A stretch of 64,000 bases of DNA from Bacteroidota bacterium (GTDB lineage: Bacteria > Bacteroidota > Bacteroidia > Bacteroidales > PUMT01). The stretch lies in NCBI GenBank assembly GCA_037446695.1, contig JBBIHY010000001.1, positions 134,376-198,375 of the forward strand, in the 5' to 3' direction. The notes below the pieces were generated by a model, which was not told where the DNA came from, searched no databases, and was given only the letters and a program-made list of their open reading frames with translations. The position numbers and the translations under genes are program-made. Shown here one piece after another: positions 30,364-36,501 of this stretch (within the stretch, counting starts at the first letter, position 1; each line of letters begins with the position of its first letter).

Positions 30364-31329
30364 TTAAATGAGACCTTTTTTGTGCTTTTCACCAATCACT
30401 TTTAACATATCCTGCGTCATAGAGTCAAGATCATATTCCGGTTGCCAGCCCCATTCTTCGCGTGCAGCGCTGTCATCAATGGAATCAGGCCACGAATCAG
30501 CAATTTTTTGCCTGAAGTCGGGTTTATAGGTAATTGAAAACTCAGGGATATATTTTCTGATTGCTGCCGCCAGTTCTCCGGCACAAAAACTCATGGAACC
30601 TACATTGAAATCAGCATGGTGTTTTAATTTTGAAAAATCGGCCTGCATGAGGTCTATGGTTGCCTTAAGACAGTCGGGCATGTACATCATCGGTAGCCTT
30701 GTATTTTCGGCTAAAAAACACTCGTATGATTTATGTTTCACTGCCTCGTAGAAGATTTCCACTGCATAATCGGTAGTTCCTCCTCCCGGTAATGTGTCGT
30801 TACTGATAATCCCGGGGTAACGGAGTCCCCTGATATCCATGCCATATTTGGCAACATAATAGTCAGCCAGCAATTCTCCTGTAACCTTGGTGATACCATA
30901 CATGGTAGTAGGCTTGAGGATAGTTTCCTGAGGGGTATTCTCCCTTGGTGTTGTTGGTCCAAATACAGCAATGGAACTTGGAACCATGACCTGGAATAAT
31001 TTCTTTTCCCGTGCAATTTCAAAAATATTCAGCAGGCCTGCAATATTTACATCCCATGCTTTCATGGGATTTTTCTCCCCTACAGCCGAAAGAATTGCAG
31101 CCAGATGAACTATTGTATTAATGCCATATTTGTCTAAAATCTCAGCAGTTTTTTTCGTATCTGTTACATTCAACTGCTCAAAGGGGCCTCCATTTGCCAG
31201 GTTTTCCTTTACATCGGGACAAATATCAGAAGCAACCACATTACTCCCCCCATAGATTTTTCTCAGGGCAATTGTGAGTTCGGAGCCTATTTGTCCGCAG
31301 GAGCCGGTTACCAGGATTTTTTTAATCAT
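30364..31329 (-). CDS. tdh: L-threonine 3-dehydrogenase (SDR/GalE-like type)
   Basis: TGSCGQIG, LSAVGE, PSSIAVFG, YGITK, PGGGTTDY, SWP motifs; divergent from kbl. Confidence 0.9.
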   Translation of the reverse strand: MIKKILVTGSCGQIGSELTIALRKIYGGSNVVASDICPDVKENLANGGPFEQLNVTDTKKTAEILDKYGINTIVHLAAILSAVGEKNPMKAWDVNIAGLLNIFEIAREKKLFQVMVPSSIAVFGPTTPRENTPQETILKPTTMYGITKVTGELLADYYVAKYGMDIRGLRYPGIISNDTLPGGGTTDYAVEIFYEAVKHKSYECFLAENTRLPMMYMPDCLKATIDLMQADFSKLKHHADFNVGSMSFCAGELAAAIRKYIPEFSITYKPDFRQKIADSWPDSIDDSAAREEWGWQPEYDLDSMTQDMLKVIGEKHKKGLI

Positions 31330-31512
31330 AACTGAAAGATTTGAAAGTGAGAATTGAAATTTTATGCCGCAAAATTAATGGTTTCTTTTGTCCGACAATT
31401 TTTTGCATTCAAAACTAAGGGTTTAAAATGAAACAGAACCTGCAAAATCTCAGTTTTCGGGAAATAGGTTCAAGTATGCCATTTATCACCTATTGGATTG
31501 AAGCGAATTGAT

Positions 31513-31520
31513 TAATTTTG
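31513..31520 (+). promoter_or_regulatory. Bacteroidota -7 element (TAATTTTG) for the kbl-acpS run
   Basis: TAnnTTTG 21 nt before kbl ATG 31542; a mirror TAATTTTG on the minus strand near 31370-31377 would serve tdh. Confidence 0.55.
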
Positions 31521-31541
31521 TGCGATAAAAAAGAAAAATAT

Positions 31542-32738
31542 ATGTACGGAAAAATTAAGGAGGATCTTCAGAGTCAGATTGAGAATATAAAAAGCGAGGG
31601 ATTATACAAGACAGAGAGAATCATTACCACACCACAGGGAGTCGAGATCGAGACCAACGGCAGGAAAGTATTGAACTTTTGCGCCAACAATTACCTTGGC
31701 CTTTCTTCTGATCCAAGAGTGATGGCAGCGGCCAATTATACTTTTTTCAAATATGGCTATGGGATGTCATCGGTTCGTTTTATTTGCGGAACTCAAAAGG
31801 TACACAAGGATCTCGAAAATAAACTGAGTGAGTTTCTGGGTATGGATGACACCATACTTTTTTCTTCGGCCTTTGATGCCAACGGGGGTGTTTTTGAACC
31901 TTTACTAAGTGAGCAGGATGCTATTATATCTGATGAATTAAACCACGCTTCTATCATTGACGGAGTGCGGCTATGCAAAGCAAAGCGTTTCCGCTACAAA
32001 AACAATGATATGGAAGACCTTGAAGATGTACTGGAAGATGCGCGCGAAGCCAGGTATAAACTCATTGTGACCGATGGGGTATTTTCCATGGATGGAATCA
32101 TAGCCCGGGTAGATAAGATTTGTGATTTGGCAGAGAAGTACGATGCCCTGGTGATGGTAGATGATTCACATGCAACAGGTTTTGTGGGGAAAACCGGAAG
32201 AGGCACTCATGAATATTGCAATGTTATGGACAGGGTGGATATCATTTCCACTACCTTTGGTAAGGCACTAGGTGGTGCATCAGGTGGTTGTATTTCAGGC
32301 AGAAAGGAAATCATTGAACTTCTCAGGCAAAGGGCCAGGCCCTATTTGTTTTCCAATTCTCTGGCACCTTCGATAGCAGGGGCAACATTGGAGGTTTTAA
32401 ACCTGCTTTCTGAAACAACTGAACTCAGGGATAAGCTGTATAAAAATACCCAACTTTTCAGAAAGGGCATGACCGAGGCGGGCTTCCGAATCATTCCCGG
32501 GGTGCATTCCATTGTTCCCGTGCTCTTTGGACATTTGCCAAATGATGCAAAACTATCACAGGATTTTGCCAATGCATTGCTGGAGGAAGGTATCTATGTG
32601 ATAGGTTTCTATTTTCCTGTTGTGCCACGGGGCAAATCCAGGATAAGAGTGCAGATTAGTGCTGCACACAGCGTGGATCAAATAAATTTTGCCATTGAAA
32701 AATTTACCAAGGTTGGTAAAAAACTGAAAGCAATTTGA
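31542..32738 (+). CDS. kbl: Glycine C-acetyltransferase (2-amino-3-ketobutyrate CoA ligase)
   Basis: [67 protein letters not shown]. Confidence 0.92.
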
Positions 32739-34918: not shown

Positions 34919-35002
34919 CACGATTTCCGGTTTGCCGGAGATCAGATAGTAATACCCAAATTCAACAATAAAAAACGAACCAATCAAAAGGAGATTTGAA
35001 CT

Positions 35003-35245
35003 ATGGAAGACATGAAAGAAATTGTAAGAGAATATGTAGTAAAAGAATATGTGGAGGATGATACTGAAATCGGTTATGATACACCTTTGATTTCCGGTGG
35101 AATCGTTGATTCTTTTTCAATGGTATCCCTGAAGCGGTTTTTAGAAAACAAGTACAATATTTCCATCCCCGATGACAAGGCCACGCCCGAAGCATTTGAC
35201 AGTGTGAACAAGATCGTTGACCTTGTCAATGAATTTGTAAAATAG
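35003..35245 (+). CDS. Stand-alone acyl/aminoacyl carrier protein (DltC-like)
   Basis: 80 aa, acidic, GIVDSFSMV phosphopantetheine Ser motif, PEAFDSV; AAGGAG RBS. Confidence 0.9.
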   Translation: MEDMKEIVREYVVKEYVEDDTEIGYDTPLISGGIVDSFSMVSLKRFLENKYNISIPDDKATPEAFDSVNKIVDLVNEFVK

Positions 35246-35253
35246 GAGGCATT

Positions 35254-36501
35254 ATGGCTTATTCAGGAAAAACAAGGGCAATGTATACCGAGATGCTGGA
35301 TGGTATACGCGAAGCCGGACTTTTCAAGCAGGAGCGGTTCATACATTCCTCGCAGGCAGCAGATATTGAGGTGGAATTTCCTGCAGGTTCCCCACTCAAA
35401 AAGGTGATTAACATATGTGCAAACAATTATCTGGGGATGTCCAGTCATCCCGAGGTTATAAAAGCAGCCCATGCAGGATTGGATTCCCATGGTTACGGGA
35501 TGTCATCGGTAAGGTTTATTTGCGGTACACAGGACATTCACAAGAAACTGGAAGAAATGGTCACGGAATTCCTTGGCACTGAGGATACCGTTCTGTTCCC
35601 GTCATGTATGGACGCAAATGCAGGTGTGTTTGAAGCTATTCTTACCAAGGATGACGTAATGATATCCGACAGGCTGGTACATGCCTCCATCATTGACGGT
35701 ATCAGGCTAAGCAGTGCCATGCACGACACTTTCAAGCATTCTGACATGGAGCACCTGGAGTGCAAATTGCAGCTGCATAATGATCGAAGATTGAAGGTTG
35801 TGATTACTGATGGTGTTTTTTCCATGGATGGCGATACTGCTAAACTCGACGAGATGGTGAAACTTTGTGAGAAATACGATGCTTTGTTGGTTGTAGACGA
35901 CTCCCATGCCAGTGGCTTTATTGGTAAAACAGGCAGGGGTACCCATGAAAAATACGGAGTCATGGGTAAAATGGATATCATTACCACCACTTTTGGAAAA
36001 GGACTGGGAGGTGCCTCAGGAGGTTGTGTGTCGGGAAGAAAAGAGCTGGTAGAATTATGCCGGCAGCGTGCAAGGCCATACCTTTTCTCTAACACAATAG
36101 CTCCCCCCATTGTTTCCGGAGTTATCAAAGTACTTGAAATATTGTCGGCTTCTACTGATCGCAGGGATAAACTTGAAAGAAATACCGATTTCTGGAGAGC
36201 AGGATTATGCGATGCCGGTTTTATTGTTAAGGATGGAGATACACCCATTGTGCCGGTAATGCTCTTCAACGCGAAACTTTCACAGGATTTTTCCCGTGAC
36301 CTGTTCCAGGAAGGAATTTATGCTATCGGATTTTTCTTTCCTGTAGTGCCACAAAGCCAGGCCAGGATAAGAACCCAAATTTCTGCCGGGCACGAGATGC
36401 ATCACCTTGAAAAGGCCCTGGAGGCTTTTAAAAAGGTTGGAAAGAAGTATGATATACTCGGGAAAAGCAAACAGGAAATCATCGATATGTACGGAATGTA
36501 A
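35254..36501 (+). CDS. Second Kbl-like alpha-oxoamine synthase (PLP, class II aminotransferase)
   Basis: [47 protein letters not shown] overlapping the carrier-protein stop. Confidence 0.9.
   Translation: MAYSGKTRAMYTEMLDGIREAGLFKQERFIHSSQAADIEVEFPAGSPLKKVINICANNYLGMSSHPEVIKAAHAGLDSHGYGMSSVRFICGTQDIHKKLEEMVTEFLGTEDTVLFPSCMDANAGVFEAILTKDDVMISDRLVHASIIDGIRLSSAMHDTFKHSDMEHLECKLQLHNDRRLKVVITDGVFSMDGDTAKLDEMVKLCEKYDALLVVDDSHASGFIGKTGRGTHEKYGVMGKMDIITTTFGKGLGGASGGCVSGRKELVELCRQRARPYLFSNTIAPPIVSGVIKVLEILSASTDRRDKLERNTDFWRAGLCDAGFIVKDGDTPIVPVMLFNAKLSQDFSRDLFQEGIYAIGFFFPVVPQSQARIRTQISAGHEMHHLEKALEAFKKVGKKYDILGKSKQEIIDMYGM

Follow-up and report, generated by a model that had tools for sequence, protein, structure and literature searches.

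A conserved acpS-ligase-carrier-kbl2 gene block from Bacteroidales and its possible role in a carrier-dependent link between acetate, glycine and threonine

We analyzed a 64,000-nucleotide stretch of a genome of the order Bacteroidales (Bacteroidota bacterium, assembly GCA_037446695.1, contig JBBIHY010000001.1, positions 134,376 to 198,375), hereafter called the window, to which all gene coordinates given for this locus refer. In this stretch, the threonine dehydrogenase gene tdh lies back to back with five genes that share one direction: kbl1, acpS, a gene for an AMP-forming ligase of the AcsA type, a gene for a small acyl carrier protein (ACP) and kbl2. We found that acpS, the ligase gene, the ACP gene and kbl2 constitute a conserved unit. 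This module is widely conserved and apparently undescribed, and comparative evidence suggests that its products probably keep a two-carbon unit on a carrier protein of their own rather than on coenzyme A (CoA). In the reading that we prefer, to which we assign a probability of roughly 40%, acetate would be loaded on the ACP as acetyl-ACP, Kbl2 would join the acetyl group and glycine to form 2-amino-3-ketobutyrate, and Tdh would provide the link to threonine, with the route running in the assimilatory direction.

One genome per species was scanned with an alignment of four ACPs, which revealed at least 531 related ACP loci in species genomes, and at least 8000 ACP-related protein clusters and many metagenome contigs were found as well. 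The best 80 of the at least 531 loci were examined; they belonged mostly to uncultured Bacteroidales (Prolixibacteraceae, Rikenellaceae, Lentimicrobiaceae and Draconibacterium), and a few were labelled Zixibacteria, Aminicenantes, Delongbacteria or Terriglobia. The gene kbl2 was located directly after the ACP gene in all 74 informative loci, and the ligase gene was located directly before it in 69 of 71; the two exceptions were L092, where the ligase gene lay 6 kb away, and L082, which had none. Additionally, acpS was present upstream of the ACP gene in 64 of 65 informative loci, and 50 of 60 had a module-type kbl1 upstream. Genes for secreted proteins that carry C-terminal sorting domains for type IX secretion were observed between the ligase and ACP genes in two loci, L017 (G028:C676, positions 2063-6935) and L092 (positions 4049-9954), where they left both genes unbroken; the inserts encoded PKD-repeat and beta-propeller proteins in L017 and a 1740-aa S8 peptidase in L092.

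A more independent sample consisted of 401 genomes of the window's order, evenly drawn and at least 90% complete. The ACP was present in 32 genomes, which span 26 of the 226 genera. Orthologs of the ligase, defined by at least 70% identity, occurred in 33 genomes, and 31 of these also had the ACP. Three genomes broke the pattern: G322 and G066, in each of which the locus is at the edge of a contig, and G325, which gave no ACP match at E<=1e-15. In the genus of G128, G238 and G325, the ligase ortholog and the ACP lay on separate contigs, and the module was thus split. The order sample contained only six other acetyl-CoA synthetase (ACS)-like genes, which were 41-47% identical to the ligase, and none of these had an ACP or Kbl neighbour. 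A distant set of 80 metagenome loci had ligases 53-80% identical; 41 of these loci were 9 kb or longer, and 37 of the 41 contained the ligase-ACP-kbl2 triad. Beyond the triad, acpS was the only recurrent neighbour in the distant loci, and the other recurrent clusters were antisense shadow open reading frames (ORFs). The order tdh-acpS-ligase-ACP-kbl2 was found in L085 and L095, both on Zixibacteria-labelled contigs, and in L158 and L179, while acpS-tdh-ligase-ACP-kbl2 was found in L154 and kbl2-tdh in L028.

The ligase (33215-34918, forward strand), which we propose to be an acetate:[ACP] ligase, and the ACP (35003-35245, forward strand), a dedicated carrier of 80 residues, are also physically joined in some proteins. 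In-frame ligase-ACP fusions with a homologous junction were identified in P0127, P0132 and the fragment P0125. P0132 comprised 6 member sequences on 5 contigs and was 76% identical to P0127; its residues 10-568 showed 66% identity to the window's ligase and its residues 573-649 showed 65% identity to the ACP, with a 4-residue linker in between. Fusions of AcpS with ACP were also found (P0133, P0137 and P0138). Three other long ACP forms (P0134, P0136 and P0123) contained stretches translated out of frame, and we set them aside as frameshift artefacts. In none of the 80 metagenome loci were ligase and ACP found in one open frame; 39 contained both motifs in separate frames or ORFs, and 41 were without one or both. 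We found that the two genes were in the same frame and separated by a single stop in six of the seven metagenome junctions inspected. This lone stop was mostly TGA in L120, L123, L172 and L186, and in L123 and L186 it ran straight into the ACP ATG. Readthrough or tight translational coupling is conceivable at these single-stop junctions.

The closest solved structure to the ligase was a 572-aa acetyl-CoA synthetase (9g79, E 4.8e-169), and the ligase marginally passed the acetate--CoA ligase model NF003313 with 739.4 bits against a cut-off of 729, while long-chain ligase models were far below their cut-offs. Alignment to 2p2f and 9g79 revealed that the acetate pocket and the catalytic lysine are present, the latter within the motif SGKIMRR. 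The pocket positions in Salmonella Acs, which we take to be 310, 311, 386 and 414 and which were compared with the alignment, correspond to V310, T311, V386 and W414; the aligned ligase positions were invariant in 70 of 70 module ligases. The pocket Trp was replaced by Phe in five of the six non-module ACS-like ligases of the order. These five ligases (L113-L116 and L118), of approximately 545 aa and 44-47% identical to the module ligase, had no ACP or Kbl neighbours and probably take a different short-chain acid. A Leu in place of R526 was considered as a signature of ACP use and dropped, as it also occurs in five of the six non-module ligases. The module ligase was the sole close ACS homolog in the window's genome.

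The ACP showed no Pfam match at E 0.001, and PF00550 gave 18.5 bits against a cut-off of 20.8. The best NCBIfam matches were all below their cut-offs, with the OlsHI ACP first, followed by AmcB and DltC; an assignment as an OlsHI-type carrier was rejected because the score was under the threshold (62.9 vs 130). As evident from the alignment of 24 sequences, the serine of the DSF motif (Ser37) was invariant and the core LISGGIVDSFSMVSLKRFLE was nearly invariant in all of them. The nearest Atlas clusters carry the name ACP, with PF00550 on 17-47% of their members, and the names in the source databases were only "acyl carrier protein" or "hypothetical". The housekeeping AcpP was located elsewhere, on contig C6.

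The acpS gene (32735-33133, forward strand) encodes an AcpS-type 4'-phosphopantetheinyl transferase (PPTase), with 93.6 bits against TIGR00516 (cut-off 59.8) and 63.1 bits against PF01648 (cut-off 25). The window's genome contained two PPTase genes, the module acpS, which is its sole AcpS-type gene, and a frame of approximately 214 aa, a size as in its relatives. In five of five module-less relatives of the same family (88-98% complete), no AcpS-type homolog was found, and each had exactly one PPTase of approximately 220 aa. We conclude from these five genomes that AcpS arrived with the module; the same result overturned its assignment as the housekeeping PPTase of the lineage and bore out the preliminary description of this locus, made from the letters alone, in which the AcpS was taken to be private to the module.

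Kbl1 (31518-32738, forward strand) is a module-type Kbl of the glycine C-acetyltransferase family, and Kbl2 (35254-36501, forward strand) is a Kbl-clade alpha-oxoamine synthase that we propose as the user of acetyl-ACP. Against two glycine C-acetyltransferase models, NF005394 (cut-off 460) and TIGR01822 (cut-off 493), Kbl1 scored 630.3 and 624.8 bits and Kbl2 scored 557.1 and 563.8 bits. Upon alignment with E. coli Kbl, both proteins were found to keep the pyridoxal phosphate (PLP) lysine and the CANNYLG, HAS, DDSH, TxGK, RPYLFSN and RIR motifs. Kbl2 was far below the cut-offs of the serine palmitoyltransferase (SPT) models (311.5 vs 640, 274.2 vs 500 and 225.8 vs 670) and of the CqsA model NF005526 (189.5 bits vs 428), and it also failed the BioF and ALAS cut-offs. 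Phylogenetic analysis revealed three supported groups, namely module Kbl1, generic Bacteroidales Kbl and Kbl2. The Kbl2 clade (SH-like approximate likelihood ratio, SH-aLRT, 100) had a long stem and very short internal branches, the window's Kbl1 fell inside a separate module-Kbl1 clade (SH-aLRT 98), and E. coli Kbl grouped with generic Kbl and Kbl2 at weak support (82). The identity of Kbl2 across families was 79-90%.

The Kbl2 clade carried a set of invariant changes (E. coli numbering): N135V beside the stacking histidine, K149M, R150H, R152T, L298R and F309W. Additionally, it had gained a 5-residue insert and a conserved C-terminal tail. K149, R150 and R152 are common to Kbl1, generic Kbl and E. 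coli Kbl; in particular, Kbl1 retains the basic segment CKAKRFRY, while the segment CKAKRYRY has become SSAMHDTF in the window's Kbl2. The residue aligned with R150 presumably contacts CoA in ALAS (ALAS Lys156). In 37 distant Kbl2 sequences, the three basic residues were consistently lost and the tail was kept, and the position of Asn135, which is Asn in Kbl and ALAS, was Val in 36. The longer proteins that matched Kbl2 were only generic fusions of the Kbl-Tdh type with at most 57% identity, none of them in the Kbl2 clade. A structure prediction for a complex of the Kbl2 dimer with ACP scored 0.14 against a mark of 0.32 and speaks neither for nor against binding. A divergent Kbl-like gene (36-60% identity) was observed right after kbl2, instead of an upstream kbl1, in L092 (11613-12866), L151, L155 and L158.

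The organization of the locus agreed with the preliminary description in all six genes, their coordinates and junctions, and the motifs TFGKxLGGASGG, RPYLFSN, WCTADPGWVTG and DTYWQTETG named there were found in the translations. The kbl1 TGA stop is overlapped by the acpS TTG start (shared TTGA), and the kbl2 ATG lies 8 nt downstream of the ACP TAG stop. The true start of kbl1 is probably the ATG at 31542 rather than the listed TTG, as it better fits the N-terminus of E. coli Kbl. A terminator-like hairpin with a T-run follows kbl2 (36529-36552, forward strand; 9 pairs, tail TTTCATTTAA), as the preliminary description had noted; it is a consensus match only. The divergent intergenic region between tdh and kbl1 occupies 31330-31517 according to the ORF coordinates and contains a promoter-like hit (31402-31429) at the consensus level only, such hits being no commoner than in shuffles. 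Rfam gave zero matches in 30000-37200 (E<=1). The tdh gene (30364-31329, reverse strand), a resident gene of the locus, encodes a protein with a Pfam Epimerase match of 99.5 bits. Its best solved relatives were L-threonine 3-dehydrogenases (7cgv, E 1.9e-132; 2yy7, E 1.8e-115; 7epr, E 3.5e-112), and mouse TDH (4yr9) matched with E 6.4e-90. By these matches, Tdh is an L-threonine 3-dehydrogenase of the short-chain dehydrogenase/reductase (SDR; UDP-galactose-4-epimerase-like) type and a close relative of characterised enzymes.

Relatives of the same family were found to share the order of tdh, a generic kbl and nrd with the window. Compared with the window, their nrd genes were 79-82% identical, tdh 68-69% and kbl 60-62%. 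The window's Kbl1 shared 58-64% identity with the relatives' generic Kbl and 80-88% with the Kbl1 proteins encoded in module loci of other families, and the ACP was found at a strong E-value in 0 of 19 same-family genomes. The simplest history suggested by these comparisons is that kbl1-acpS-ligase-ACP-kbl2 replaced the resident kbl between tdh and nrd as one unit. Because the block would thus have entered a pre-existing tdh-kbl locus, the adjacency of tdh would be partly inherited from the landing site.

An acetate uptake transporter (AceTr; NF038013, 273 bits vs 50) was encoded after kbl2 in 37 of 71 loci, and a gene for a Pat-like protein of approximately 894 aa (ACD-like domains and GNAT) was seen close by in 25 of 80. 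One of these genes, in the Zixibacteria locus L085, comes immediately after kbl2. In the window's genome, no AceTr homolog was found, and neither an AceTr nor a Pat-like gene was present beside the module. Two further genes recurred, each in 35 of the 80 loci: one for a protein of approximately 450-490 aa without a Pfam or NCBIfam match (e.g., L020, 15229-16698, reverse strand) and one for a thioredoxin-like protein of approximately 171 aa. Both sit between the acetate transporter and the Pat-like gene in loci of the L018/L020 type, and their recurrence may be plain synteny.

From the observed gene identities, conservation, co-occurrence, fusions and block acquisition, we infer each chemical step and the direction of the following scheme. 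The private AcpS would convert the 80-aa apo-carrier into the holo form. The AcsA-like ligase would then adenylate acetate and move the acetyl group to the phosphopantetheine thiol of the ACP, with conversion of ATP to AMP and pyrophosphate (PPi). Kbl2, with its remodelled thioester-side surface, would condense acetyl-ACP and glycine to 2-amino-3-ketobutyrate, which the SDR-type Tdh would reduce to threonine; product that is not captured would decarboxylate to aminoacetone. A small, fully acetylated ACP pool charged by an AMP-forming ligase could push the unfavourable C-C bond formation, insulated from the equilibrium of acetyl-CoA and acetate that fermenters hold with an ADP-forming acetyl-CoA synthetase. 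Kbl1 is probably still CoA-dependent and acts at the same node.

Each step draws on its own evidence. Loading of the ACP by the ligase is suggested by the adjacency in 69 of 71 loci, the co-occurrence in 31 genomes, the ligase-ACP fusions and the single-stop junctions. Acetate is the likely acyl group because the pocket is invariant in 70 of 70 ligases, AceTr follows kbl2 in many loci and Pat-like neighbours recur. Transfer from ACP to Kbl2 is indicated by the 74 of 74 adjacency, the separate Kbl2 clade, N135V, the lost basic cluster and the gained tail, and chemistry on glycine and 2-amino-3-ketobutyrate is indicated because Kbl2 passes the Kbl models, keeps the active-site motifs and is operonic with tdh elsewhere. 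Together with the private AcpS, these comparative data lend support to the central proposal of the preliminary description, in which the ligase loads a short acyl group on AcpS-primed ACP and Kbl2 uses the acyl-ACP. The assimilatory direction, from acetate and glycine to threonine, is favoured over the catabolic one for three reasons: an AMP-forming ligase with an acetate transporter and a Pat-like protein resembles an acetate-scavenging layout, adenylation-carrier fusions are typical of loading enzymes, and an insulated, charged ACP pool could push the unfavourable condensation. We suggest more tentatively still that anaerobic fermenters of several phyla use ATP-charged acetyl-ACP to drive C-C bond formation between acetate and glycine, so that Tdh/Kbl would run in reverse as a carrier-dependent threonine synthesis, encoded by a mobile block of four to five genes that can overwrite a resident kbl.

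Several observations weigh against this scheme, and the first group concerns the module itself. Judged by sequence, the ligase belongs with the ordinary acetyl-CoA synthetases, just above the NCBIfam cut-off, and no residue signature that splits ACP use from CoA use was found in it. The fused proteins are known from metagenome gene calls, as protein sequences, and the 80 genome loci are mostly from one order and mutually related rather than independent. We assume, by analogy with Lys156 of ALAS, that the basic residues missing from Kbl2 bind the nucleotide part of CoA. The Cupriavidus necator Kbl structure paper, searched by terms, yielded no CoA-contact residues.

The second group concerns threonine as the product. 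The preliminary description had expected co-conservation of five genes together with tdh; this stood for acpS, the ligase, ACP and kbl2, and in 50 of 60 loci for kbl1, but the sequence examined around each locus, approximately 10 kb, included tdh in just 14 of 80. Neither the acetate transporter nor the Pat-like protein tells the two directions apart. It had also been expected, as a sign of threonine synthesis from glycine and acetate, that the module would be correlated with the absence of thrC. This expectation failed, as thrC (E<=1e-45) was present in 25 of the 32 ACP holders of the order sample versus 231 of the 369 non-holders. Since thrC is not depleted in holders, the module is no replacement for the standard threonine pathway, and the phyletic pattern gives the assimilatory direction no support. 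The window's genome (2.66 Mb, 99.65% complete) contained no thrC above the cut-off, no homoserine dehydrogenase and no hisD, all three of which were present in all 14 control genomes. It is probably a broad amino-acid auxotroph, and we attribute its missing thrC to this broad auxotrophy, as homoserine dehydrogenase and hisD are missing too.

The alternative that survives best is a catabolic run of the same genes. Tdh would oxidise threonine, Kbl2 with holo-ACP would yield glycine and acetyl-ACP, and the ligase in reverse would release acetate and form ATP from AMP and PPi, with export through AceTr; given a private ACP pool, ATP synthesis could be powered by the exergonic thiolysis while acetyl-CoA is spared. 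A tdh-kbl pair like the resident one is how catabolism is usually laid out in the family, and it was the kbl of this pair that the block replaced. With thrC, homoserine dehydrogenase and hisD all missing, the host is probably an amino-acid consumer, and the retention of thrC by most holders (25 of 32) is in line with this alternative. Acetate channels of the SatP/AceTr family, such as the one after kbl2, can serve export, and PPi-dependent ATP formation by an AMP-forming Acs has reportedly been found in Syntrophus aciditrophicus. However, an ACD-like gene of the host (its only one, on contig C7) may already allow ATP to be made from acetyl-CoA, adenylation-carrier fusions generally belong to enzymes that load, and the acs-permease-Pat layout is a classic pattern of acetate scavenging. 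To our knowledge, there is no precedent for the reversal of such a ligase on an ACP. We regard catabolism as unlikely, yet as a serious competitor of the assimilatory reading.

It is likewise doubtful that the module makes a different small alpha-aminoketone or amino-keto acid, from another short acyl group (e.g., propionate) or another amino acid, so that the output would be a cofactor precursor, a signal, a pyrazine or an aminoacetone-type metabolite instead of threonine. Propionate is often a substrate of Acs-type enzymes as well. The stem of the Kbl2 clade is long, N135V lies beside the PLP-stacking histidine (36 of 37), and tdh was found in just 14 of the 80 fetched stretches. According to one report, Kbl/Tdh pairs yield aminoacetone and alkylpyrazines (PMC9814548). 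On the other side, the acetate pocket does not vary, down to the Trp that keeps longer acids out, and Kbl2 scores above the cut-offs of the Kbl equivalog models but below those for CqsA, SPT, BioF and ALAS. No tailoring genes were conserved around the triad in the distant lineages, and the very high conservation (79-90% for Kbl2 across families) resembles that of primary metabolism.

We consider it very unlikely that the block combines an ordinary acetyl-CoA synthetase with two acetyl-CoA-using Kbl enzymes while ACP and AcpS serve another acyl transfer or regulation. The ligase and both Kbl proteins do pass curated models of CoA enzymes, the ligase is the only ACS of the genome and no ACP-specific residue signature was found in it. 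However, this explanation leaves the co-occurrence in 31 genomes, the ligase-ACP fusions, the ACP-kbl2 adjacency in 74 of 74 loci and the import of a private AcpS unexplained, and no conserved acyltransferase that could load the ACP otherwise was found nearby. A system for long-chain lipids such as sphingolipids or sulfonolipids, with an SPT- or SulA-like synthase and an acyl-ACP synthetase, is scarcely credible: the layout of ACP, adenylating ligase, alpha-oxoamine synthase and SDR recalls the Caulobacter ceramide cluster as presented in PMC9386255, but Kbl2 is far under the SPT cut-offs, the ligase has a small acetate pocket, the SDR is of the bona fide threonine dehydrogenase type and the genome has a separate third alpha-oxoamine synthase on contig C13. 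This third enzyme (G000:C13:74870-76018) was 33-34% identical to Kbl1 and scored 300 bits against the Kbl model, below the cut-off; it could be of the BioF, SPT or SulA type.

Annotation pipelines label the genes of the module as acetate--CoA ligase, acyl carrier protein and glycine C-acetyltransferase, and the module is thereby hidden in ordinary acetate and threonine metabolism. Literature searches, which did not extend to the supplementary tables of PMC9386255, turned up no account of a Kbl that depends on a carrier. If the assimilatory reading is true, the module would be the first short-chain, primary-metabolism case of the logic that combines a specialised ACP, a ligase and an alpha-oxoamine synthase, so far known from sphingolipid synthesis alone. 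It would also provide a new link between acetate, glycine and threonine to be considered when carbon and nitrogen are modelled in anoxic sediments, digesters and subsurface communities, and a natural example of a protein carrier that thermodynamically insulates a thioester pool from CoA.

To place the module among known systems, we compared it with its closest characterised counterpart, the AasR/AcpR/SPT system of Rhodobacteria (Caulobacter, E. coli B and Sphingomonas). As described in PMC9386255, the ligase of that system was shown by experiment to acylate only its own ACP and not CoA, and the alpha-oxoamine synthase prefers acyl-AcpR, the rationale being that the acyl pool is sequestered for one pathway. 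Both systems have a specialised small ACP gene right before an alpha-oxoamine synthase gene, a co-occurring, dedicated adenylate-forming ligase and an SDR gene. In contrast, the module ligase is of the AcsA type for acetate rather than the long-chain AasR, and the module synthase belongs to the Kbl clade (glycine, C2) rather than to SPT (serine, C16). Furthermore, the module has its own AcpS, its SDR is a threonine dehydrogenase, its hosts are anaerobic Bacteroidales and members of other phyla, and its product would be an amino-acid intermediate and not a lipid. On these sequence features, the module would work like AasR/AcpR/SPT but is not a member of that system.

The module shares its enzyme families, the adjacent tdh and kbl genes and the intermediate 2-amino-3-ketobutyrate with the classical Tdh-Kbl cleavage of threonine (E. 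coli kbl-tdh; 1fc4, 7bxp). Unlike the module, that pathway is CoA-based and has no carrier, ligase or PPTase, and Kbl2 forms a separate, remodelled clade. With acs-actP under Pat/CobB control and with B. subtilis-type AcsA (9g79), the module shares the family, the acetate pocket, the SGKIMRR motif and, in many loci, the transporter and Pat-like neighbours. In contrast to an AMP-forming acetyl-CoA synthetase, however, the module ligase is tied to or fused with a carrier, and its proposed thiol acceptor is the ACP and not CoA. ATP-dependent acetylation of a dedicated ACP thiol is also the reaction of CitC and MadH, the acetate:[ACP] ligases responsible for priming citrate lyase and malonate decarboxylase. 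These belong to an unrelated ligase family and act on a prosthetic group of the 2'-(5''-phosphoribosyl)-3'-dephospho-CoA type, and the acetyl group is there a catalytic primer, whereas in the module it would be a substrate.

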